A stretch of DNA of 24,432 nt, from NCBI GenBank assembly GCA_041562555.1, contig JBFEXS010000023.1, positions 1 to 24,432 on the forward strand, in the 5' to 3' direction. Position numbers and translations under genes: made by a program. Below, piece after piece: positions 7,028-19,015 of the stretch (position 1 is the first letter of the stretch; the number at the start of each line of letters is the position of its first letter). This DNA comes from Sulfurimonadaceae bacterium. Its GTDB lineage: Bacteria; Campylobacterota; Campylobacteria; Campylobacterales; Sulfurimonadaceae. The notes beneath the pieces are model-generated. The model ran no database searches. It was given only the letters and a program-made list of their open reading frames with translations, and was not told the DNA's origin.

Positions 7028-9223
7028 ATGAGTAATTTACTCTATAGTTCCAGCAATTATTTAATTCGCATGGTAGAGTCAATACTCGAAACAAATATTC
7101 ATGTGCATGGAGAAGAGAACCTGCTTCATGATGCTCCCACTCTTTTTGTGGCAAATCATTTTACCCGTTTTGAGACCTTCGTTATGCCCTATATTATTTT
7201 TTCACACTCTCAGATGGGTGTGCGTTCACTCGCAGATCACTCTATCTTTGTCGGATACTTTGGAAAGTTTTTAAATAGGGTCGGAACACTTTCTACCAAT
7301 GCAGAACATAGAAATGAGATCATTCTTGGTGATCTTATGACAGGTCGGGAGAATTGGATCATTTACCCTGAAGGGGCGATGGTTAAAAATAAGAAGATTA
7401 TCAAAAACAATGAGTTCATTCTAGACTTCCTAGACGGTACCAGTCCGGTTCATACGGGCTCAGCCGTATTGGCAATAGAAAGTGAATTACTAAAACAGGA
7501 GTATAAAAGAGCCCAACAGGCAGGTGATGTCATCAAGGTAAGACAGATGCGTGAGAAGTATTTTATCAAGCCAAATGAACGTGTCTCTTATCGCAGTACA
7601 GTCGTAGTCCCGGTTAATATCACCTATACGCCAATTCGTCCCGGGATGAACCCTATGATGAGCATTGGGAACAAGGTGGTTGAGCATATCGATGAACGTA
7701 TTAAGGAAGAGCTGGAGATCGAAGGCAATATCTTGCTTAATTCGGAAATACATGTACGATTCGATAAACCTGTGGATATCCTGACATACATCTATAAGGC
7801 GAGAGATGAAATGCGGTGTCAAACAGATAAGGAAGGAACGATCTCGGATAAAGACCTGATCGGATACTGTCGTCATGATCTGACAACACAGTTCATGGAT
7901 GCAGTCTATAAAAACACCTTGATCAATTTTGATCATATCTTTGCGCTGGTATTGGCCCATTATTGTGAAGAATATATTGGGTTACATGAGTTGAAAAGGG
8001 CTATTTTCTTGGCCGCAAGGGATGTCATGGCGTTGAAGACCTATCATGTCCACCATAGTATCAGGGATGAGCTCTACAAGCTGCTTACGGATGAGAAAGA
8101 CCCCTGGTTTGAAAGTGCATTGGGTCTGGCCTTGGAGCAACATGTCTTAGCACATGTTGAAGATGAACTGTATAGGATTAATAAAGGGGTGTTTGAGCAA
8201 GAACATGAGTTCCATACGATTCGTATTCGCAACACTTTAAAGGTCATCTTAAATGAGATCTCCTTATTCAATAATGTGACGCAAAGTGTACAGGATAATC
8301 TGAATAAGAGCTCTCACAAGATTAAAGAAGAGGTGTTCTATCTTATTTACAATCAGGATAAGAAGATTTATAAACAGACCTACAATAAGTTTTATTCAGT
8401 GCTTCTGTCAAAGCCAAAGGAGATCGGTGAGCCGTTTATCTTATATAACCCCGATTTTTGTGTAGGCGTCGTCTTATCTCACGGTTATACATCCTCTCCT
8501 TCGGAGATCAAAGAGCTGGCATATCATCTGCATGAACAGGGGATGAATGTCTATGGGGTCCGTTTACAGGGGCATGGTACCGTAAGCGAAGACCTTCGTG
8601 ACAGTACCTGGGAAGGTTGGTACGATAGCTTTAATCGCGGTTTTGCCGCTTTGCGGCAGGTAAGTAAGAAACTTTTTGTTGCAGGGTTCTCGACAGGAGG
8701 ACTATTAGCCATAATGGCAACGGCGAGAAAGCGTAATAGGGTTGATGGACTAATTGTGATCAATGCGGCTTTGGAGCTTCAGGATATCCGTGTCAATTAT
8801 GTCGTCCCGACACTTAATAAACTGAATGATTTTTTAGCACTTTTTAAAGCGGACTTGGAGTATGTTGAAGGTGAATCGGAGTTTCCGGATTTCAATTACA
8901 AACGAAATTACATCAAGTCTTTGGATCAGTTGCGTTTATTGATGCAAGAGTGTCAGTTGGCACTACCTTTGATTACAACACCTACCTTGATCATACAAGG
9001 AGATAAAGATCCTGTAGTGAAGCCTGAAAGTGCCAACAAGATTTTCGATATGATCAGTTCGCAAGACAAGCGATTGGAGAGCCTCTCTTCAAACCGCCAC
9101 GTGATTGTCTTGGGTGAGGGAAAAGAGAGAGTCTTTAATTGTGTAAGTGAGTTTATTCAGTCAAAGGCCAAGGACTTTTTTTTATACAAAGCAGATGGAA
9201 TGCGTGAAAAGTGTGATCTGTAA
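7028..9223 (+). CDS. Fusion of a PlsC/PlsB-like acyltransferase domain and a C-terminal alpha/beta-hydrolase (esterase/monoacylglycerol lipase-like)
   Basis: The N-terminal part has VANHFTRFE (HX4D-like block I) and IYPEG. The C-terminal part has SHGY, nucleophile elbow GFSTG (8684-8698), QGDKDPVV and SNRHVI. Strong GAGGAGG RBS upstream. Confidence 0.82.
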   Translation: MSNLLYSSSNYLIRMVESILETNIHVHGEENLLHDAPTLFVANHFTRFETFVMPYIIFSHSQMGVRSLADHSIFVGYFGKFLNRVGTLSTNAEHRNEIILGDLMTGRENWIIYPEGAMVKNKKIIKNNEFILDFLDGTSPVHTGSAVLAIESELLKQEYKRAQQAGDVIKVRQMREKYFIKPNERVSYRSTVVVPVNITYTPIRPGMNPMMSIGNKVVEHIDERIKEELEIEGNILLNSEIHVRFDKPVDILTYIYKARDEMRCQTDKEGTISDKDLIGYCRHDLTTQFMDAVYKNTLINFDHIFALVLAHYCEEYIGLHELKRAIFLAARDVMALKTYHVHHSIRDELYKLLTDEKDPWFESALGLALEQHVLAHVEDELYRINKGVFEQEHEFHTIRIRNTLKVILNEISLFNNVTQSVQDNLNKSSHKIKEEVFYLIYNQDKKIYKQTYNKFYSVLLSKPKEIGEPFILYNPDFCVGVVLSHGYTSSPSEIKELAYHLHEQGMNVYGVRLQGHGTVSEDLRDSTWEGWYDSFNRGFAALRQVSKKLFVAGFSTGGLLAIMATARKRNRVDGLIVINAALELQDIRVNYVVPTLNKLNDFLALFKADLEYVEGESEFPDFNYKRNYIKSLDQLRLLMQECQLALPLITTPTLIIQGDKDPVVKPESANKIFDMISSQDKRLESLSSNRHVIVLGEGKERVFNCVSEFIQSKAKDFFLYKADGMREKCDL

Positions 9224-9235
9224 TGAGGTGGAAAG

Positions 9236-10795
9236 ATGAGTGAAGAACTGTTTGAATTTGCCGAAGAGAAGCAAGCGAGCGTAAGTTATGATGGATTCTG
9301 GAAGATACTGGTTGTGGATGATGATGAAGAGGTACATGCCATCACAAAAGCAGTGTTGAAAGACTTTGTTTTTGAAGGAAAAGAACTGGCACTTGTGCAT
9401 GCGAATAGTGCGGCAGAAGCAAGGAAGTGCCTGAGCGAACATGAAGACATTGCTCTGATACTGCTTGATGTGGTAATGGAGACAGATGCAGCCGGACTTG
9501 ATTTTGTCGAATATGTACGCAATGAACTCAATAATAAACTTGTACGAATCGTTCTACGTACCGGCCAGCCTGGACAGGCGCCCCAACGCGATGTCATAGT
9601 TTCTTTGGATATCAATGATTATAAGGAGAAAACAGAACTTACCGTTGATAAGCTTTTTACAACGGTGATCGCCTCGATACGTTCTTATAGGGATCTGATT
9701 AATATCGAACATAAGCGTTCGGTTATCGAGCAAAACCGAAAGGGGTTAAAGCAGATCATCGATGCTTCGTCAAACCTGTTTGAGATACATTCTTTACAAG
9801 AGTTTGCGAAGGGTGCACTTACCCAACTGATATCCATTCTGAATCTTGACGAAGATTCTCTGTATTTGAAAGTTGATGGGCTAAGTCTGAGTAAAACCAG
9901 CGACGGTTTTTATGTTTTAGCGGGAACAGGTAAGTACTCACAGTTTGAGAATCAACCGGTGAATCAATACATTGATAATGATCTAAAAGAAAAATTCGAT
10001 CGTGTCCTTGAAGAAGAGAAATCGATGTTTTTTGATGAAGTCTTTATTGGGTATTTCAGGTCAAGTAATGGCAGCATCAATATGATCTATGTAGATGGCT
10101 GTAAGGGACTAACGGACAACGATAAGGGGTTGATCGATATATATTCTTCCAATGTCGCGATAGCCTTTGAGAATCTTTATCTCGATAAGGAGGTCCTTGA
10201 TACCCAGAATGAAGTGATCTCAACACTCAGTGAGGTAGTTGAAAGCCGCTCCAAGGAGACAGCAAATCACGTCAAGCGTGTGAGTGAGTATGCGTATTAT
10301 CTTGCAAGAAAATCGGGCCTTGGGGAGATTGAGAGCACTACCTTGAAATATGCTTCGCCCCTGCATGACGTAGGTAAGATAGGTATTCCAGATAGTGTTT
10401 TGTTGAAGACGACACGTTTGAGCGATGCTGAGTTTGAAGTGATCAAGACGCATACATCGATTGGCTACAGCATCTTGCGTAACTCTAAACGTCCGATACT
10501 TCAAGCTGCCGCAATAGTTGCCCATGAACATCATGAGAAGTTTGATGGGACAGGGTATCCAAGAGGGCTTAAGGGACATGATATTCATATTTATGGTCGT
10601 ATCATAGCGATTGCAGATGTATTTGATGCTTTGTCGCATCGACGTTGCTATAAAGAGGCATGGAGCCTTGAGGAGACCCTGTCCTACATGGAAGTAAATG
10701 CGGGAACGCATTTTGATCCGGTATTGATCAAACTATTTTTATCGGATATCAGCTATATCCAGGATATTATGCGACGCTATTCTGACGAGATCTGA
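9236..10795 (+). CDS. Response regulator with REC, central DUF3369-like and HD-GYP (putative cyclic-di-GMP phosphodiesterase) domains
   Basis: REC motifs LVVDDD, LLDVVME and LRTGQPG; HD-GYP motifs HDVGKIG, HHEKFDGTGYP and IADVFDAL. GAGG RBS upstream. Confidence 0.9.
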   Translation: MSEELFEFAEEKQASVSYDGFWKILVVDDDEEVHAITKAVLKDFVFEGKELALVHANSAAEARKCLSEHEDIALILLDVVMETDAAGLDFVEYVRNELNNKLVRIVLRTGQPGQAPQRDVIVSLDINDYKEKTELTVDKLFTTVIASIRSYRDLINIEHKRSVIEQNRKGLKQIIDASSNLFEIHSLQEFAKGALTQLISILNLDEDSLYLKVDGLSLSKTSDGFYVLAGTGKYSQFENQPVNQYIDNDLKEKFDRVLEEEKSMFFDEVFIGYFRSSNGSINMIYVDGCKGLTDNDKGLIDIYSSNVAIAFENLYLDKEVLDTQNEVISTLSEVVESRSKETANHVKRVSEYAYYLARKSGLGEIESTTLKYASPLHDVGKIGIPDSVLLKTTRLSDAEFEVIKTHTSIGYSILRNSKRPILQAAAIVAHEHHEKFDGTGYPRGLKGHDIHIYGRIIAIADVFDALSHRRCYKEAWSLEETLSYMEVNAGTHFDPVLIKLFLSDISYIQDIMRRYSDEI

Positions 10796-10796
10796 A

Positions 10797-11954
10797 TCAA
10801 GATAAGAGATGTCTGTGTATATAGCGTTTGAAACGTATGATATAGTAGGAAATTCCAAGTTTATTATCGGCTCTTCCCAGGGAAAGGATATCATCAATGT
10901 AGAGTGGAAAAAAGAGTTTTTTAATTCTGTGTAGTTGTTGAAATATTGTATCATCAAGTTTTAGAACAAAGAAAAACTCCATCCATCGAATTCCCCTCTT
11001 CTTTGGTCTTAAGATATAATATTTCGTATATTGCTCCATCACTTCCTGAAACTGTTTGTTAAGTGAACTTTTTTTGAGAAGCCTTTTTGTTTCCTCATCA
11101 GGCATCTTTTGTAAGTAGAGTTCCTGAAGGAGCCGTAAACTTAAAAGATAAATCTTCAGGACTTTCTCCTCTGTGGCAAGTGCATATAGTCTTTTCCAGT
11201 CATATATGTGGTGATATTTATCAAAAAGACGATTAAGATCATTAATCCATTCTATTCGCTCAAAGCGATGTTTGGCTGCATGGATACATAGATACAAAAA
11301 CTCCTCTTCATGATCAAGAATACGCAGCTTTAGCCCTTGTAAAGAAAGGCTTGAACTGTGTTTAAAAAGGGTGGGGGTGTCACCAAAAATCGCAGAAGAG
11401 AAGGCAAAAAGCTTCCAATGGAGTTCAATGACAAGACCGGTTTCCGGATGTACAAAGGAGATATCCGAAAAATGCTCTAAAATATAGGGATTACGAAGTG
11501 CTTCAAGGGAGTGTTCACAACAGTATCCCATCTCAAGAATCACTTCTGAGACTTTTAAAAGGTCTCCCGGTAGAACGAGGATGTCCAAGTCGCTGAAAGG
11601 ACGCAGCCTGATCTCTCCATAGGCGTGTTGGGCTAAGGCTGGACCTTTTATAGAGAGAAGCTCAATATCGTGGTATGTCTTCAGTTTATAGCAGAGTTGA
11701 AGAAGTTGGGCAGTGATGAAAAAATTGCTTTTGGCTATTTTTACAGCTGCATCTTTTATAGCAGGTGCTGATTTGATTTCCTTGATTGCAAGGAGCACTT
11801 CGTATACTAAAGGCAGTACACCATGAGCAATGGCCAGATCAAGTAAAAGAGTTTCATCGATGCCATCATGAAAAATCTCTGAGATTCTCTTCTGTGAGGG
11901 CGTAATCTGAGAGACTTCGAACAGTAGTTCCAATTCATTGCTGAATTTACTCAA
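10797..11954 (-). CDS. Nucleotidyltransferase family protein (NTP_transf_5-like, as found in lasso-peptide and HprK-related loci)
   Basis: IKGPALA..Y...RPFSDLDILV (KG plus DxD), IELHW and HAAKH motifs. The TTG start overlaps the PqqD-gene TGA (TTGA at 11951-11954). Confidence 0.85.
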   Translation of the reverse strand: MSKFSNELELLFEVSQITPSQKRISEIFHDGIDETLLLDLAIAHGVLPLVYEVLLAIKEIKSAPAIKDAAVKIAKSNFFITAQLLQLCYKLKTYHDIELLSIKGPALAQHAYGEIRLRPFSDLDILVLPGDLLKVSEVILEMGYCCEHSLEALRNPYILEHFSDISFVHPETGLVIELHWKLFAFSSAIFGDTPTLFKHSSSLSLQGLKLRILDHEEEFLYLCIHAAKHRFERIEWINDLNRLFDKYHHIYDWKRLYALATEEKVLKIYLLSLRLLQELYLQKMPDEETKRLLKKSSLNKQFQEVMEQYTKYYILRPKKRGIRWMEFFFVLKLDDTIFQQLHRIKKLFFPLYIDDILSLGRADNKLGISYYIIRFKRYIHRHLLS

Positions 11955-12223
11955 GTGAGCTCAATTAAGTGATGACTTTTCAGTTCATTGATGAGCATTA
12001 GCAGGTCCTGTTCAAGCTGTTGAGGACCTACATCAAACTCTTGCAAGATCAATGTATATGTTTCTTGTAGACTTTTTCCCTCCTGTAGCATATTCACAAA
12101 AAGTGCCCCGACGGGGTTTAGTCCATAATGCTCTTGTGTTTGAATATCAAGCAAAACAGCTTCGTCATCAAAATGTTGGAACATGATATGGGAAGGAAAA
12201 GAAATCTGTTTTTCAAATAGCAT
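11951..12223 (-). CDS. Stand-alone PqqD-family protein / RiPP recognition element (lasso B1-like)
   Basis: 90 aa with the typical DDEAVLLD....HYGLNPVG...L...EFDV...LEQDL..LI..L...LI pattern. Overlaps both neighbours. Confidence 0.9.
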   Translation of the reverse strand: MLFEKQISFPSHIMFQHFDDEAVLLDIQTQEHYGLNPVGALFVNMLQEGKSLQETYTLILQEFDVGPQQLEQDLLMLINELKSHHLIELT

Positions 12224-13100
12224 GGCTGCTCTTTATACGTGATTTGTGGTGCTGACATATAGCCTCATAGACTTCGTGAAGACGTGTCAGATCCCATGGG
12301 ATATCAATAGAATACACGTCGATAACCTTTGCTATTTTAGCAATTAATTCAAAAGAACGTGCTTTGTTAAGGGGAAGGTTGAAATCAAAGTTATATTGCA
12401 AGGCTTTGTATTTTTCCAGTCCTCGCAATATATTAAAATGGACAGGGTCTTCTTTGGGTGCTTTCCGGAGGACATATATGGCATCGAGTGCCTGTATGCC
12501 CGCAGCAAAATTGTCCACCGAAACGCCCAGATCCTCCATCTTACGATAAGGCCTATGATAGGGATAAGAGGGGACAGAGACGATCTTGTCATCCTGGGCA
12601 AGAAGCGCTACTCTGTCATCGCTGATCATAGTATGGTTCTGTCGGATGAAATAATCCGTCAAAGTCGATTTCCCACCATGGGATGGTGCGATAAATAAAA
12701 CACGATGGTCATTGATCTCAACTCCTCCGGCATGAATAAACTCAAAGATGCCTTCAATCGTTAAAAAGACAGGACACAATGTATGCAAGAACCAATACCT
12801 TAGAAGTTCAGGAGTGCCTTCGGTGTGTAGTTGATATGAAACAACAAAACTACCTTTAGACCAAAAGAAATCAATGACGTCTTTGACACTGAAACACCAT
12901 TGTTGGCCATCAACATTTGACTCAAAGGTGTGGTCCGTGGACAATGATACTTCACGGCCCTGGTTTTGCTGATAGTAAATAACATTTGCAAAACTTCTTT
13001 GAGGTGTGTCTAGGGGTGTTAAAAAGATGGTAGAGGCAGGGCGTTTGCTGTCATCATGAATGGGAATATCGTAATGTATGTCGTGTGCAAAGGCTGTCAT
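12213..13100 (-). CDS. HPr kinase-like peptide kinase (PadeK / HprK-related)
   Basis: IHAGGV (catalytic His region), Walker A APSHGGKST and SDD acidic pair, in the order seen in HprK-fold kinases. Lacks the size and N-terminal domain of a canonical HprK. Confidence 0.82.
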   Translation of the reverse strand: MTAFAHDIHYDIPIHDDSKRPASTIFLTPLDTPQRSFANVIYYQQNQGREVSLSTDHTFESNVDGQQWCFSVKDVIDFFWSKGSFVVSYQLHTEGTPELLRYWFLHTLCPVFLTIEGIFEFIHAGGVEINDHRVLFIAPSHGGKSTLTDYFIRQNHTMISDDRVALLAQDDKIVSVPSYPYHRPYRKMEDLGVSVDNFAAGIQALDAIYVLRKAPKEDPVHFNILRGLEKYKALQYNFDFNLPLNKARSFELIAKIAKVIDVYSIDIPWDLTRLHEVYEAICQHHKSRIKSSHAI

Positions 13101-13159
13101 CTAAAATATATTACCCTGTTCTGTTTTTCATAAGTATAGCGAAAGTGATCCCTGTAGCC

Positions 13160-13227
13160 ATTATAATTCTATCATTTACTGTTGGTTAACTAATTTAAAC
13201 CAGATATAATTAATACTATGCCATAAT
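13160..13227. promoter_or_regulatory. Candidate divergent sigma70 -10 elements for the kinase operon and the peptide gene
   Basis: Palindromic ATTATAAT at 13160-13167 gives TATAAT on both strands; there is also TATAAT at 13205-13210 and TGcCATAAT at 13219-13227 in an AT-rich spacer. Confidence 0.4.
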
Positions 13228-13271
13228 CAGGCAAAAGTAATCTAGTCTAAAGTTTTGAAATGAGGGTAAGC

Positions 13272-13526
13272 ATGGAAAAAGTATTTGAAAATGACTGTAA
13301 TGAGTCACGTCGTGATCTTTTAAAAAAGGCCTATGTAGCGCCAGCAATAGTGGCTTTAGGCTCGATGACGCTGACAACGAATCTCAGCGGTTCGTCATCT
13401 TTACAGAATAATGGATGGGGAAATGGTGATCAAACAGCACCGGGGCACTCTTTGCCTAACAATGATGCTGAAAACAATTTGCATGGAAAATATCATAATA
13501 AATTTGGTTCTCCAAACCCTAATTAA
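13272..13526 (+). CDS. Small (84 aa) putative RiPP precursor / Tat-signal peptide
   Basis: GAGGG at 13262-13266 precedes the ATG at 13272. The product has SRRDLLK, then YVAPAIVALGSMTLTT, a Ser-rich linker and an Asn/Gly-rich tail. It is divergent from the kinase-PqqD-NTase operon and followed by a hairpin. Confidence 0.72.
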   Translation: MEKVFENDCNESRRDLLKKAYVAPAIVALGSMTLTTNLSGSSSLQNNGWGNGDQTAPGHSLPNNDAENNLHGKYHNKFGSPNPN

Positions 13527-13550
13527 TACTCGTATGTCCCGCAACTGAGA

Positions 13551-13578
13551 TCAGAGTCTTTTCAGGCTTTGACTTTTT
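13551..13578 (+). terminator. Probable intrinsic terminator of the peptide gene
   Basis: TCAGAGTCT-TTTC-AGGCTTTGA forms a 9-bp stem with two G-U pairs, followed by CTTTTT, about 25 nt after the stop. Confidence 0.5.
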
Positions 13579-13743
13579 CCTTCGTAACAAAGATGGTTTT
13601 TACCACTTCCTTTAGTTCACTTCTGATGTGAATAATGTTAAATATAGATACTTTTAAAGATTAAAGTTTAATTTTTTTTACAAACTAAAGTCAGATTAAT
13701 CTTAACAATATACAATTAAGCATTCTAAACTATGGAGAAAATA

Positions 13744-14025
13744 ATGAAAAAAGTTCTTGTATTACTTGCAGTTCTAGGTTTAAGCTCAGCTGCAATGGCT
13801 GACGCATATACAAAGTGTGCTGGTTGTCACGGTGCAAACGGTGAGAAAAAAGCTCTTGGTAAAAGTAAAGTGATCGCTGAGATGGCTAAAGCTGATATCG
13901 TTGCTGCACTTAAAGGTTATAAAGACGGTTCATATGGTGGTCCAATGAAAGGTCTTATGAAAGGTCAAGTTGCTGCACTTAGCGATGCTGACATTACTGC
14001 TATCGCTGAAAAAATCGGTAAATAG
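13744..14025 (+). CDS. Periplasmic monoheme cytochrome c553
   Basis: Sec signal MKKVLVLLAVLGLSSAAMA, heme motif CAGCH and YGGPMKGLM with the axial Met. GGAGA RBS favours the ATG at 13744 over 13732. Confidence 0.93.
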   Translation: MKKVLVLLAVLGLSSAAMADAYTKCAGCHGANGEKKALGKSKVIAEMAKADIVAALKGYKDGSYGGPMKGLMKGQVAALSDADITAIAEKIGK

Positions 14026-14812: not shown

Positions 14813-15376
14813 ATGATAAAAGCGAGTGCACGTCATATTTTAGTGGATAGTGAAGAACAGTGCTTGGCACTTAAATCGGAGATTGAATCAGGAAAAGATT
14901 TTGCTGAAGTTGCAATGCAAAACTCCGCATGTCCATCCAAAGCTCAAGGCGGGGAACTGGGTGAGTTTGGACCGGGACAGATGGTACCAGAGTTTGACAA
15001 GGTCTGTTTCGAAGGCGACCTTGGGGTACTTCATGTGGTGAAAACGGATTTCGGTTATCATATCGTGGAAGTGACCGGTCGCGGAGAAGTTCAGATGCCA
15101 AGCGGTATGGCAAGTGCACGCCATATCTTGGTTGAGAGTGAAGAAAAATGCCTGGCGCTTAAAGCAGAGATTGAAGCGGGTAAAGACTTTGCTCAAGCTG
15201 CACAGGAATACTCTTCGTGCCCATCAAAGGCTCAAGGCGGGGAACTGGGTGAGTTTGGACCGGGACAGATGGTACCTGAGTTTGACAAGGTCTGTTTCGA
15301 AGGCGATCTGGGCATTATCCATGTGGTACAGACACAGTTTGGCTGGCATCTGGTAGAAGTTACCGCACGCTCTTAA
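14813..15376 (+). CDS. ppiC: Peptidyl-prolyl cis-trans isomerase with two tandem PpiC/parvulin domains
   Basis: Two copies of ASARHILV...CPSKAQGGELGEFGPGQMVPEFD...T.FG(Y/W)H. AGGAG RBS; no signal peptide. Confidence 0.92.
   Translation: MIKASARHILVDSEEQCLALKSEIESGKDFAEVAMQNSACPSKAQGGELGEFGPGQMVPEFDKVCFEGDLGVLHVVKTDFGYHIVEVTGRGEVQMPSGMASARHILVESEEKCLALKAEIEAGKDFAQAAQEYSSCPSKAQGGELGEFGPGQMVPEFDKVCFEGDLGIIHVVQTQFGWHLVEVTARS
14942..15306 (+). repeat. 77-bp near-identical direct repeat within the double parvulin gene
   Basis: 14942-15018 and 15230-15306 match at 76 of 77 positions (A14989 vs T15277), offset 288 bp. Confidence 0.9.
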
Positions 15377-17297
15377 GCCCTTTAACAAAGGCATGGATTT
15401 TGGCCTTTAGCAAGCCAAGTTCATGCTGTCTCTTAGAATATCGGAGTTCATGGTAGAGTCGGTTTATCTCTGCAAGACTTTGGTAATGATTCGTCTTTCC
15501 CATAAGTGATTGTAAAAACTCGGACATACTTTCGCCCTGTTTTCGTTCAAATCCCTCTTTTCTTAATGCCCTTATCAAAACCTCCATCTCACACAATAGT
15601 TTGTCTTTACATTGCACTTTTTGAAGTGAGATGAACAGAAAAAATGCGAGTGTGACAAGAAGTAAGAGCGTAGCTATAAACTTGATCAGAAAGAGTGTGT
15701 CCGAGAGCAACTCTTTAAGTAATGAAAGTTGTTTGGAACGGTCATACTGCAAGACCCAGGTATTGATAAGATGACGTGTATACATATAATATATATTAAG
15801 GTGTTTAAAAAGCTTCTGTAGTGTAGTGTCTTGTGTGTATGCGCTCGCAAGACCTGTATTGTCGGCTTTGATAACACGTCTTGCAGTGGATGTCGGCTCA
15901 AATCTGATCCAGCCTTTGTCTTTTAGGTAGAGTTCGACCCAGGCATGGGCATCGGCTTCTTTGACAACAAGGTAATCATTGATGGCATTGGCTGCATCTG
16001 CCTTATATCCTGTAACGATACGGGAAGGGATACCCAGCATACGCGCAGATGTAGCAAAAGCAGCAGCAAAATGGACACAATACCCAACCTTTGAATCGTG
16101 TAAAAACGAATCTGTAGGGCGCAAGAGGTCCAGTCTCTTAGGCTTGAGGGAGTAGGAAAGGTCCAAAGAGGTGAAATAGCTCATGAGGGCTTTGGCCTTG
16201 GTGTTGTCGTCTTGATCTATATCGATAGTGTTCATTAGGTCCTGATAGGTTCTGGGATCACGGCTGATGTTGACATCAAGGGCTCTTTCAAAGGTATTCT
16301 CTTTCTGTGTTGTATAAACCAGTGCAGCACGACCTTCATAATAGGTGATCTCGTCAATAGGTTGTGTAGAATAGGTGATGTAGTCCTTCGTTATATAACT
16401 TTTGGGAGGTTGACGTAGGGGCAGATCGAGCATATACAGCCATCGTTTTTTATGCGGATATAGTTTGACCCTGTAGTCTATGACTGCTTTTGGGTTGAAA
16501 ATGGATACGCGAGTAGCCCTTGGCGGTTCACTGTTGATCCACTCATTGAGTTTATCCTCATATAAAGTAGAGCCACGAAAGTATAAAAGGGCAGCAGGAG
16601 GCACCTCTCCTTCAAAACTGACCTCCATGACGATCTTGGGAGAGGGAACAAGCAGCGCCTTGGAATCGAGATACATATGACCATCGTGACCTGTTCGGCT
16701 AATCTGCTCACCTTGAAAACCGAAGCTTGCTTTTTTATAGGATATTCGAGGAAAGGTAAGAAAGAGAAGCAAAACGATCGGTAAAGAGAAGAGATATAAA
16801 AGCCCATTAATACGGAGTGCATTTCGAAGGCTGCTATGCATACGCGCATAAAGCAGCAGGAGTGTAAAGATAAAGAGGGTGAACAGGGCATAAAACAACA
16901 TGGATATAGAGTTGAAAAAGAAGAATGACAGGATCATTAACATCGCAGGGGAGATCAACAGATAAAAATTGATTGTCTGGGTGAGTCTTTGCAAAATGAT
17001 GGCCATGGTTAGAAAGGAGATGAGTAAAGAGATGAAAACAAGCAGGCGTGAGAAACTAGAGAAGTTATATTCGGCAAAGAAACTTAGACTGATCGCCAAT
17101 ATACCTAAAAAAGTAAAGATAAGAAGCGTGAGTCGCGAATTTGATTTTTTATAGATAAAGATCAGACCCAAAAAAGCAAAAACAAGCATAGGTAACTTGA
17201 GGATGAAAAGGTGCGGCAGAAAGGAGAGACCAAGGGCAATATCAAGCAGTTGAAGACGCGTTAATTTAGTAGAGGGCAAGAAATGTGAGAATTTCAT
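15360..17297 (-). CDS. Membrane-anchored transglutaminase-like protein (DUF3488/TgpA type)
   Basis: Multi-TM N-terminus; GYCVHFA (Cys), RIVTGY, AHAWVE (His) and RFEPT. Third gene of the MoxR-DUF58 operon. Confidence 0.88.
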   Translation of the reverse strand: MKFSHFLPSTKLTRLQLLDIALGLSFLPHLFILKLPMLVFAFLGLIFIYKKSNSRLTLLIFTFLGILAISLSFFAEYNFSSFSRLLVFISLLISFLTMAIILQRLTQTINFYLLISPAMLMILSFFFFNSISMLFYALFTLFIFTLLLLYARMHSSLRNALRINGLLYLFSLPIVLLLFLTFPRISYKKASFGFQGEQISRTGHDGHMYLDSKALLVPSPKIVMEVSFEGEVPPAALLYFRGSTLYEDKLNEWINSEPPRATRVSIFNPKAVIDYRVKLYPHKKRWLYMLDLPLRQPPKSYITKDYITYSTQPIDEITYYEGRAALVYTTQKENTFERALDVNISRDPRTYQDLMNTIDIDQDDNTKAKALMSYFTSLDLSYSLKPKRLDLLRPTDSFLHDSKVGYCVHFAAAFATSARMLGIPSRIVTGYKADAANAINDYLVVKEADAHAWVELYLKDKGWIRFEPTSTARRVIKADNTGLASAYTQDTTLQKLFKHLNIYYMYTRHLINTWVLQYDRSKQLSLLKELLSDTLFLIKFIATLLLLVTLAFFLFISLQKVQCKDKLLCEMEVLIRALRKEGFERKQGESMSEFLQSLMGKTNHYQSLAEINRLYHELRYSKRQHELGLLKAKIHAFVKGLKSVR

Positions 17298-18141
17298 GGT
17301 GGCTCCTGCTGCGTGAATTTAGCGTGGTATTGGGAAAATGCATACTGTAACTGATACCTTTTTTCTTGCACTCTATTGCCCAGAGACACAATTGAGAGAG
17401 CCTTTGCTCATCACTCTCAGCAGATGTTATAAAGTCAAAATGTAAATGTTTGCTTTTTTCCAGAAGGCTGAACTCCTTGGACATCAGTTCAGTACCCTTG
17501 GCTACGGATGGCCAATAGATCAGGGAGAGGGGCTCTCCCTCTTTATAAAGTTTGATCCCCTCAAAGTCTTCCTGTTCACCGAAGAGGGCTTTGTGTTTGG
17601 AACTGAGCGTATCAAGACTTTTTCCCTTCGCCTCCGGATAGATGATGACTTCATCGTTTATCGGGACTGTTTTATATAAGATCTCGTGTGGCAGTGGGAA
17701 ATAACTTCCTATCTGAAGATCGGGAAGATGTGTTTTTCCTCTTTTCGTCGGGGTAAAAGAGAGTGTGATCGCCTTTTTCTGCAGACCTGCAAGCGTGTCT
17801 ATGATGACGGTAGAACTTTTGTTCGTACATTCGAGGGCATAGCTCTCTCTATCAGGGTTTGGATTGTAAATATTCAGAGAATATTCAGAGGCCTGATTGG
17901 CAAAAAGATCCTGTGCACTCAGCAAAGAGACCTGGAGTTCGTAAAGATTGAGCCTGCCGATGATACTTGAGGCCCCTGCAAGAGAGAAGGTGAAAAACAT
18001 CATCAAATAGACAATGTTGTAATTATGCATATAGGCCAAAAAGAACAGACCCACAATACTGAGTACAAGTAGGATAAAATACTTGGTCGGTCTGGTATGG
18101 ATCTCTTTAAGAATCCGGATGAATGTGTGAAAGAATTTCAT
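17266..18141 (-). CDS. DUF58 domain protein
   Basis: N-terminal TM pair, KRG, IIYP and EDFEGIKLYKEGEPLSLIYW..AK....KEF motifs. Start is uncertain (ATG at 18141 or 18153; 18237 is unlikely). Confidence 0.85.
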   Translation of the reverse strand: MKFFHTFIRILKEIHTRPTKYFILLVLSIVGLFFLAYMHNYNIVYLMMFFTFSLAGASSIIGRLNLYELQVSLLSAQDLFANQASEYSLNIYNPNPDRESYALECTNKSSTVIIDTLAGLQKKAITLSFTPTKRGKTHLPDLQIGSYFPLPHEILYKTVPINDEVIIYPEAKGKSLDTLSSKHKALFGEQEDFEGIKLYKEGEPLSLIYWPSVAKGTELMSKEFSLLEKSKHLHFDFITSAESDEQRLSQLCLWAIECKKKGISYSMHFPNTTLNSRSRSHHEILTFLALY

Positions 18142-19015
18142 CAGATATCTCATGGGCTGATTTGGAACCCTCTTTGGAAGAGAGTCTGTGCGCCGTGACG
18201 TAAGGCAGGAGGAAAGAGATGTCTGAAGGAATGACATAATCCCGTCCCTGTATCAGAGCCCAGGCTCTGGAGAGTTTACTCAAGGCAACGGCGCCACGTG
18301 TTGATATTCCACCTTGATACAGTCCGCTTTCTCGGGTAAAGCCCAAGATCGCCTGCAGGTAGTCTAACAGGGCCTCACTGATATGGACAAGTTCTACTGC
18401 AGATCGAAGCTCTTGTATATGGGTTGGATTGACGGGACTCAGTTCGTCAAGTTTAAGCTGCAGATGCTGTGCCAAGATAGAACGCTCTGCCTGCTTATCA
18501 GGATATCCCAATGAAAAAGAGATGGCAAAACGGTCAAGTTGTGAACTCGGAAGCTCAAAGGTACCTACTTCCTCAAAGGGATTTTTTGTCGCCATGACAA
18601 AAAATGGATGCGGAAGTTGCATCGTTTTACCGTCGATACTGACCTGGTGTTCTTCCATCGCTTCCAGGAGTGCAGACTGGGTTTTTGGGGTTGCACGATT
18701 GATCTCATCTGCAAGAAGGAATTGCGAGAATATAGGACCGGACTTGAAACGAAAAGCGGACTCTTTCGTATCAAAATAGTTCATACCCAAAATATCGCTG
18801 GGAAGGAGGTCTGAGGTGAATTGGACTCGAGAGAAATCAAGACCCAGTACCTGCGCGAAAACTTTTGCCAGAGAGGTCTTTCCGACTCCGGGAAGATCTT
18901 CTATGAGAATATGTCCGTCACATAAAAAAGCGCACAGGCACAGCTGTATCTTTTCACGTTTTCCCTTGATACGTTTTTCGATCTCGTCAATTATCATATC
19001 TATTTTCTTTTGCAT
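18107..19015 (-). CDS. moxR: MoxR-family AAA+ ATPase
   Basis: IEDLPGVGKT, RVQFTSDLLPSD, LADEINRATPKTQSALLEAMEE, ATKNP and QLDRF motifs. Confidence 0.95.
   Translation of the reverse strand: MQKKIDMIIDEIEKRIKGKREKIQLCLCAFLCDGHILIEDLPGVGKTSLAKVFAQVLGLDFSRVQFTSDLLPSDILGMNYFDTKESAFRFKSGPIFSQFLLADEINRATPKTQSALLEAMEEHQVSIDGKTMQLPHPFFVMATKNPFEEVGTFELPSSQLDRFAISFSLGYPDKQAERSILAQHLQLKLDELSPVNPTHIQELRSAVELVHISEALLDYLQAILGFTRESGLYQGGISTRGAVALSKLSRAWALIQGRDYVIPSDISFLLPYVTAHRLSSKEGSKSAHEISDEILSHIHPDS

Follow-up and report, generated by a model that had tools for sequence, protein, structure and literature searches.

A proposed minimal Gram-negative variant of the linear polyphosphorylated peptide cassette, with a Tat-like precursor leader, in a Sulfurimonadaceae bacterium

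The stretch of DNA analysed here (24,432 nt, hereafter the window) lies on contig JBFEXS010000023.1 of a Sulfurimonadaceae bacterium (Campylobacterota) and holds, at about 10797-13578, a cassette of four genes: an HPr-kinase-fold peptide kinase, a discrete PqqD-type recognition element (RRE) for peptides that are made on ribosomes and modified after translation (RiPPs), a nucleotidyltransferase-fold enzyme of the NTP_transf_5 family (NTP5), and a divergent gene for an 84-aa peptide. The cassette is a minimal Gram-negative variant of the kind of pathway described for the linear polyphosphorylated peptides (LPPs) of Bacillota such as Paenibacillus alginolyticus (Popov et al., Nat Commun 2026, PMC13381572), not a new class. 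As judged from its genes, the host, a marine bacterium, probably makes a phosphate-decorated secreted peptide. The reading that we favour, at a probability of roughly 60%, is that the peptide would be phosphorylated in the cytoplasm under guidance of the RRE, perhaps extended by NTP5, and would then leave by the general twin-arginine translocation (Tat) or Sec route with a cut by signal peptidase I.

Enzymes and leader of the peptide

The kinase is weak by sequence (PF07475, 20.1 bits, under the cut-off of 33.3), and its identity was assigned because its fold matches HPr kinase/phosphorylase: the ten best PDB rows retrieved by Foldseek with the AlphaFold model (mean predicted local confidence, pLDDT, 92.1) all belong to this family, led by 3tqf_B (E 2.4e-7, TM-target 0.66). 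Its residues H123, G143-K144-S145-T146 and D161-D162 are invariant among 25 homologues. NTP5 matches PF14907 with 162 bits against a cut-off of 31 (E 1.9e-47), its AlphaFold 2 model (pLDDT 91.2) shows a nucleotidyltransferase fold, and K103-G104-P105, R118, D122, D124, E177, H179, H225, K228 and H229 are invariant in 21-22 homologues; the best PDB folds, MenT1, TM1012, LnuA and ANT(2'')-Ia (E 1e-4 to 1e-2), are generic nucleotidyltransferase neighbours that give no pointer to the chemistry. The RRE is recognized by the PqqD model PF05402 (E 3.9e-14; 53 bits, cut-off 23) and weakly, under cut-off, by the lasso PqqD models NF033530 and NF033536, and its family profile finds in the PDB TbiB1 (E 4.3e-21), PbaB1 (9x90, 5.4e-13), TfuB1 (2.5e-12) and LppB (9x8z, 1.7e-9). 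Of the models that an earlier reading of this DNA (hereafter the original prediction) had named for checking, PF05402 and PF14907 match, and with the HprK-related model TIGR04352 the kinase reaches 20.1 of the 200 bits needed. The HPr-rel-A system, which pairs this kinase A with the PqqD chaperone TIGR04353 much as the window pairs kinase and PqqD, was rejected as the home of the cassette on that score and on 16.8 against 35 bits for the chaperone model.

The leader of the peptide carries S12-R13-R14-x-L-L-K-K, Y21-x-x-P24-x-I26-x-x-L29-G30 and M32-T33, with L38-S39-G40 in the place of an AxA cleavage site. When 49 such leaders are aligned on the Tyr, the Tyr, the Pro at +3 and the RR pair are present in every one, V, L or I at +5 in 48, Leu at +8 in 45 and Gly at +9 in 47; A or G stands at +19 in 43 and Ala at +17 in 24, and Ser is found at +20, +21 and +22 in 13, 20 and 14 leaders, respectively. 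G40 of the window corresponds to Y+19 and S41-S43 to Y+20 to Y+22, thus the predicted mature peptide begins SSSLQNNGWGNGDQ. The spacing of Y/P/L/G at 0/+3/+5/+9 is that of the lasso RRE-binding motif YxxPxLxxxG, which is kept in 12 lasso precursors found in sister lasso loci; RRxFLK occurs in 0 of these 12. The mean hydropathy from Y-2 to Y+13 is -0.45 in the lasso precursors (-1.39 to 0.28, n=12) versus +1.38 in the leaders with the RR pair (0.82 to 2.10, n=48), with no overlap between the two sets. By this comparison, the leaders of the cyclase-free loci have gained an S-R-R-x-F-L-K box, a hydrophobic stretch and a putative AxA-type site.

Tat signal peptides combine an S-R-R-x-F-L-K box with a mildly hydrophobic stretch, and of 40 leader peptides, 25 are picked up at E<=10 by the model TIGR01409 (TAT_signal_seq), the best at 0.0023. 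The window leader also meets NF033528 (lasso_cyano) at E 0.034, and the genome encodes TatC and an S26 signal peptidase. Its motifs give the leader the look of a docking tag fused to a Tat-type export signal, and such a signal would account for the lack of peptidase and exporter genes. The original prediction had seen the RR...YxxP leader and rightly tied the peptide to the three enzymes, however it overlooked the Tat-type nature of the signal, and with it a reason for the absence of peptidase and transporter genes. No published kinase/RRE system with a Tat leader was found among the papers covered by a literature search.

Docking was approached by complex prediction, in which the RRE with leader residues 10-52 scored 0.47 versus 0.02 for the best of three controls, the runs agreeing in at least 92% of contacts with a partner pLDDT of at least 55. 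Of 157 solved complexes 116 reach the mark applied, as do 2 of 215 mismatched pairs; those that reach it at scores <=0.60 are just 18 of the 157 solved complexes plus both mismatches that passed. RRE-leader complexes have been solved before, and the predictor may owe its pass to memory of them or to likeness.

The peptide might be the substrate with a leader that is an RRE docking tag only, in which case the RR box and hydrophobic stretch would serve binding, and release and export would fall to unlinked proteins or the product would stay intracellular. Hydrophobic residues would indeed favour the beta-strand addition by which RREs such as TbiB1, TfuB1 and LppB bind leaders (PMC13381572), however the sister lasso leaders bind related RREs with neither RR box nor hydrophobicity, and the RR pair is not only invariant but stands in the canonical S-R-R-x-F-L-K context. 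The A or G at +19 fits signal peptidase I as well, and the loss of ABC transporter (ABC) and B2 peptidase genes goes along with the gain of signal features. Weighing these against the sub-threshold Tat score of the window leader and the lack of a clear AxA in its clade, we regard a purely docking leader as unlikely.

Sister loci and the mature peptide

Among 873 candidates, 224 proved related to the kinase at E<=0.001, and a database search gave 8 relatives for the peptide. Species-representative genomes were scanned with the kinase alignment (120 relatives, the best 80 kept), giving 81 loci together with the window; their ORFs (open reading frames) were clustered, cluster representatives were named by Pfam, and a leader hidden Markov model (HMM) was scored at E<=0.01 against the small ORFs (Table 1). 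This HMM was built from 40 peptides first picked up in the same loci by phmmer, and the independent part of the co-occurrence consists of 11 further matches and the blanks in the lasso loci. As the original prediction had anticipated for its RR...YxxP peptides, leader-family members are found in all trio loci, which places the 84-aa ORF with the trio of kinase, RRE and NTP5.

Table 1. Types of kinase-bearing loci and their leader-family peptides
Locus type	Loci (of 81)	Gene content	Loci with a leader HMM match
Lasso	37	ABC, B2, kinase, Asn-synthetase-like cyclase, PqqD	1/37 (weak match to an ordinary lasso precursor)
Trio (NTP5), window included	22	peptide, kinase, PqqD, NTP5	22/22
c9	12	kinase, peptide, LamG or FG-GAP protein, 257-aa protein, PqqD	12/12
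Mixed, lasso+NTP5	1		0/1
Mixed, lasso+c9	1		1/1
Unclassified	8	mostly contig ends	6/8

The kinase tree (82 rows) unites all 21 trio-type rows and 6 unclassified ones in one 27-row group (support 87/97, not starred), which adjoins the groups of lasso-type and c9-type kinases; the window kinase falls in a 4-row clade with loci L004-L006 (100/100). Among the 23 loci that bear NTP5, an ABC gene occurs in one, an Asn synthase in one and B2 in none, and 14 of them adjoin Wza and 16 Wzc, with the window clade outside such loci. The flanks of the trio loci hold glycosyltransferases, acyltransferases and sugar-nucleotide enzymes, and no S24/S26 peptidase or ABC gene was seen among the 42 of 60 flank-cluster representatives scanned for the 22 loci, the other 18 being window-clade neighbours already named, three neighbours of L007 and short ORFs. 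A simple count of NTP5 homologues (15 of 301 genomes of the order) was rejected as a measure of cassette spread, because the homologue lies outside a trio in 4 of 5 genomes examined.

From lineage to lineage, the cores vary widely behind a conserved leader. The mature part of the window peptide starts with S41-S42-S43-L44 and continues into a module NNGWGNGDQxAPGxSLxxNxAENN..H..HG..NPN, in which S42, S43, L44, G50 and D53 are invariant in 9 homologues. A profile of the 9 closest peptides matched 115 proteins at E<=0.001 and 18 at E<=1e-10 among 1.84 billion representatives, several matches covering the core part alone within larger proteins: two carry a LapA-type retention module, one is an RTX-repeat protein and one is pseudopilin-like. 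Two further matches are small proteins with lipoprotein-type signals, whose last 40 residues are almost those of the window peptide. The module of about 40 residues (NNG[WF]GNGDQxAPGNSxxxNNAEN...H..HG..NPN) is present in one to three copies in the larger proteins and C-terminally in the small lipoproteins (P0144, P0147, P0158, P0159, P0163, P0165, P0171, P0188 and P0201), and no Pfam or NCBIfam model covers it. Its presence within larger secreted-type proteins marks it as a conserved extracytoplasmic element and not a hypervariable RiPP core, and the likely target of the kinase is the Ser-rich junction rather than the module.

The same module raises the question whether the 84-aa ORF is an ordinary small Tat- or Sec-exported neighbour, with the trio acting on something else, for instance a polysaccharide intermediate or a different protein, given that the module travels with other export signals in many proteins and that trio loci often lie within polysaccharide gene clusters. 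Yet the leader accompanies every trio and every c9 locus in front of varied cores, the lasso docking spacing Y/P/L/G is set inside the signal, a discrete RRE implies a peptide substrate (PMC13381572), and the RRE-leader prediction, for its part, points weakly to binding. A chance neighbour thus seems to us quite improbable.

Variation among the sister peptides and loci is considerable. Sulfuricurvum loci L046, L048, L050, L063, L068 and L077 (e.g., L063:7520-10678) place two precursors around the trio, the upstream one ending ...W(A/N)xxxFG.. and the downstream one carrying one or two NNG[WF]GNGDQ modules behind the same leader (one in L068 and L077, none in L046). At L007, the C-terminal half of the peptide diverges to a Cys/His-rich tail in place of the NNGWGNGDQ module. 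The c9 loci (L015, L044, L060, L062, L073, L075, L076, L078 and L080-L083; e.g., L075:2768-6918), from Campylobacterota, Methyloprofundus and Thermodesulfobacteriota, have no NTP5; their peptides join an RR-leader to a short Pro-rich core, e.g., ...FGPPPSAPGPGQGW, and their 257-aa protein has no Pfam match. In Arcobacteraceae loci L009, L020, L030, L038 and L042, genes of the GDP-mannose pathway (ManC, GDP-mannose dehydratase, phosphomannomutase, NUDIX and an epimerase) stand between kinase-PqqD and NTP5, a hint at a GDP-sugar donor.

Locus layout and the absence of lasso genes

The arrangement described by the original prediction, three overlapping minus-strand genes head-to-head with an 84-aa ORF that has a ribosome-binding site and a terminator-like hairpin, was recovered by ORF calls, Pfam and fold search (Table 2). 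The trio genes overlap by 4 nt and 11 nt. The kinase and peptide starts (13100 and 13272) diverge with 171 nt between them. The peptide ORF as such spans 13260-13526 and 88 aa; the 84-aa start at ATG 13272 is preferred because GAGGG lies 5 nt ahead of it and the protein database gene call (P0121) has the same length. The promoter-like site of the minus-strand operon (13189-13160) reads TTAACC-18-TATAAT. Counts of promoter-like and terminator-like sites in 10600-13800 show no excess over shuffles (for terminators, 2 versus a mean of 2.3), so it is only the position of the hairpin past the stop codon that is suggestive.

Table 2. Features of the cassette in the window
Feature	Coordinates	Strand	Remarks
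NTP_transf_5 (PF14907) nucleotidyltransferase-fold enzyme (NTP5)	10797-11954	-	385-aa ORF
Discrete PqqD-type RiPP recognition element (RRE)	11951-12223	-	90-aa ORF
HPr-kinase-fold peptide kinase	12213-13100	-	295 aa; N-terminal beta-rich domain (about residues 1-91) and P-loop catalytic domain
Divergent intergenic region	13101-13271		promoter-like site for the minus-strand operon; GAGGG before ATG 13272
Peptide leader, residues 1-40	13272-13391	+	alignments, tally by position over 49 leaders
Predicted mature part, residues 41-84, plus stop	13392-13526	+	alignment and profile search
Terminator-like hairpin with T-run, past the peptide gene (whole feature to 13582)	13551-13572	+

The flanking genes are unrelated to the cassette, in agreement with the original prediction: on one flank Pfam names genes of fatty-acid oxidation, a fusion of acyltransferase and hydrolase and an HD-GYP response regulator, and on the other cytochrome c, parvulin and TgpA/MoxR genes. 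The HD-GYP regulator (DUF3369; 9236-10795) ends 1 nt from the stop-codon end of the convergent NTP5 gene (10797), which leaves no terminator room between the two. The fusion (7028-9223; 731 aa, acyltransferase plus alpha/beta hydrolase) comes right after a FadE-like gene, and 14813-15376 encodes a tandem double parvulin with two PpiC domains in 187 aa. This neighbourhood recurs in L004 and L006 and mostly in L007, while TgpA is shared with L004 and L006 only and is adjoined by a 323-aa ORF (17266-18237) without Pfam match.

From L007, whose kinase is split in two ORFs (7980-8926 and 7636-7923) and whose peptide C-terminus diverges, one might suspect that the cassette is what remains of a decaying lasso cluster and no longer has a function. 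The window itself has all four frames intact, however, and the catalytic motifs are invariant; the peptide gene differs from that of L006 at codon positions 1/2/3 by 26/18/46 over 84 aligned codons, a third-position bias which indicates that it evolves as coding DNA. Together with the conservation of cassette and neighbourhood in L004, L006 and largely L007, and the one coherent group formed by the trio-type kinases, this makes decay highly improbable.

The system is not a lasso system. Neither Asn_synthase, PF13471 (B2) nor an ABC transporter was found in a Pfam scan of the 17 large ORFs of the window, where the original prediction had likewise seen no lasso cyclase, B2 or transporter. The genome (2.1 Mb, 137 contigs, 88.9% complete) gave 0 matches to PF13471, and its three Asn_synthase (PF00733) matches are AsnB, GuaA (GMP synthase) and NadE (NAD synthase), none of them a lasso cyclase. 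Nor was B2 found in any of the 21 other genomes carrying the trio type, whose completeness is unreported, so the non-lasso nature claimed by the original prediction holds on both counts. AsnB, on contig C46 beside a methyltransferase, a GAF protein, P-II and DUF1538, was rejected as a cyclase: it has 599 aa, starts MCAIFG with Cys2, and matches Asn_synthase over its full length with 303 bits. The cyclase-like genes of lasso-type loci also match GATase_7, thus GATase_7 alone is no discriminator. TgpA (15360-17297) was considered as a stand-in for B2 and rejected, having PF01841 with a TgpA_N membrane domain and belonging to a TgpA/MoxR-type gene group. A lasso core was rejected on reading the sequence, since D/E would not fall at positions 7-9 with any of the starts that follow T33, T35 and T36, whereas the sister lasso loci do show the pattern (D/E at 7-9 after Thr(-2)).

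That the trio tailors the product of a lasso cluster elsewhere in the genome deserves hardly any weight: it would lean on the incomplete assembly and on other genomes with an NTP5 homologue, in 4 of 5 of which B2 adjoins a kinase homologue (NTP5 far off in three, 3 kb away in one), against a genome that has neither B2 nor cyclase, that holds one PqqD gene and one leader-family peptide, both in the window, and a trio with its own adjacent precursor, B2 being absent from the other trio-type genomes too. Kinase-bearing lasso clusters of Sulfurovum (ABC-B2-kinase-cyclase...PqqD) occupy a conserved site between GTP cyclohydrolase II and GidB (L008, L012, L019, L040, L054, L064 and others); candidate precursors were found in 12 lasso-type loci, one of which (L054) ends in Ser.

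Relation to known pathways and proposed mechanism

Experiments on the LPP family (PMC13381572) provide a precedent for the route from kinase, RRE and nucleotidyltransferase to a linear phosphorylated peptide that the original prediction put forward. LPP clusters, often inside capsule loci, encode the precursor LppA, the kinase LppK, the RRE LppB, the signal-peptidase-I-like peptidase LppS, the MsbA-like exporter LppD and the NTP transferase LppN; LppK places up to four phosphates on core S3, LppS cleaves after T-1 only if LppB is present, and no activity of LppN was detected in the heterologous host (PMC13381572). The authors describe the family as restricted to Bacillota, and the main text of the paper has no mention of Tat, twin-arginine, Proteobacteria, Pseudomonadota, Campylobacter or Sec, although its supplementary material might list members outside Bacillota (PMC13381572). 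The same enzyme logic is thus already described there, and the novelty of the window is smaller than first thought.

The two systems share an HprK-like kinase and a discrete RRE and lack a macrolactam cyclase (PMC13381572). Beside these stands a PF14907 enzyme in the window and, in LPP, the NTP transferase LppN, a possible counterpart whose Pfam family the text does not name (PMC13381572). In both, the N-terminus of the precursor is conserved and contains YxxPx[V/L/I], its C-terminus is variable, and a conserved Ser lies a few residues past the cleavage site (LppA S3; S41-S43, past the predicted site, in the window); leader removal is signal-peptidase-type chemistry in LPP and, by its predicted site, would be so in the window. 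Capsule or exopolysaccharide loci house LPP clusters and 14-16 of the 23 NTP5-bearing sister loci, but not the window clade. The window differs further in having no LppS (SpI-like, SipW-type) among its ORFs or the flank representatives scanned and no LppD exporter, in its host (Campylobacterota versus Bacillota), and in its leader, RRxFLKK...LGxLT...AxA-like as against YxxPxVLxHQxIxFETxxS, with only YxxPx[VLI] in common (PMC13381572). The RRE profile is nearer to TbiB1 (E 4e-21) than to LppB (E 2e-9), and the kinase groups with local lasso kinases of Campylobacterota, suggesting an origin separate from LPP. Those Sulfurovum-type lasso clusters (37 of 81 loci) have kinases 34-47% identical to that of the window and the same YxxPxLxxxG spacing, but hydrophilic leaders without RRxFLK, and they carry cyclase, B2 and ABC. 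Paeninodin (PadeK) and pseudomycoidin (PsmK, PsmN) use the same three accessory families: there the kinase has the C-terminal Ser of the linear precursor as its target, and in pseudomycoidin the nucleotidyltransferase adds a hexose onto the phosphate (PMC8498205). In contrast, the window lacks cyclase, B2 and ABC exporter, and its peptide has neither a core with Asp/Glu at 7-9 nor a C-terminal Ser acceptor.

From gene content, folds, co-occurrence with the peptide and leader anatomy we infer the chemical and export steps of a four-gene, cyclase-free, RRE-dependent modification pathway, a Gram-negative analogue of that of LPP. The RRE would bind the 84-aa precursor in the cytoplasm through the box Y21-x-x-P24-x-I-x-x-L-G30, and the HPr-kinase-fold enzyme would phosphorylate Ser just past the leader, possibly several times, with S41-S43 as best candidates. 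The PF14907 enzyme may add a further group to the phosphate, either a sugar, as in pseudomycoidin, or a nucleotide. The modified peptide would exit by way of the general Tat (or Sec) machinery, with housekeeping signal peptidase I cutting it near L38-S39-G40, so that general machinery would replace LppS and LppD of LPP, and B2 and the ABC exporter of lasso clusters; such export would explain why the cassette is minimal. The product would be a linear peptide of about 44 residues, with a modified Ser-rich N-terminus and the NNGWGNGDQxAPG...NNAEN...NPN module.

Several points speak against this pathway. The window leader reaches 12.5 bits with TIGR01409, under the cut-off of 16.7, and A.A is present in 25 of 40 leaders overall, the window clade being mostly without a textbook AxA (LSG in the window and LNG in L006 at its place, none in L007). 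The complex prediction supports RRE-leader binding weakly, and the co-occurrence counts draw in part on an HMM made from peptides of the same loci. The peptide ends in N84, so the C-terminal Ser acceptor rule of paeninodin does not apply and the acceptor site is a guess by analogy with S3 of LppA. As LppN was inactive in its published host, the nucleotidyltransferase step is without firm chemistry (PMC13381572). The module is found in lipoproteins and in pseudopilin-like and LapA/RTX proteins with no known link to a cassette, thus the peptide could work unmodified. To these may be added the split kinase of L007, which may reflect decay or assembly error, and the incompleteness of the host genome and unreported completeness of the 21 others behind the absence of B2.

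A further, tentative idea, which we consider rather doubtful as a whole, is that one leader serves two readers. The RRE would hold YxxPxLxxxG in the cytoplasm during decoration of the adjoining serines by kinase and nucleotidyltransferase, after which the twin-arginine signal would be freed to carry the bulky phospho(glyco)peptide through Tat. TorD/DmsD/NapD-type chaperones bind Tat signals in the cytoplasm before export, and by analogy such a chaperone is a possible parallel for the RRE, with no homology to PqqD claimed. The RRE might then act somewhat as a Tat proofreading chaperone and signal peptidase I as the RiPP protease, with a product that joins a modified N-terminus to the module known also from adhesin-type proteins and acts at the cell surface, perhaps with the exopolysaccharide whose genes adjoin most sister cassettes.

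Taken together, the cassette, its 21 sister loci and the 12 c9 loci suggest that Gram-negative bacteria built an LPP-like logic from their own lasso clusters, and in the cyclase-free loci export and leader removal appear to have passed to general secretion through fusion of docking tag and signal peptide. If true, this would widen the known range of the LPP-type family and offer a four-gene system for the study of RRE-guided peptide phosphorylation. It would also supply a rule for finding precursors, namely a Tat-like signal that carries YxxPxLxxxG, and would tie an unannotated surface module to a modification pathway. The main interest lies in the merged docking and export leader and in the surface module that the peptide carries.

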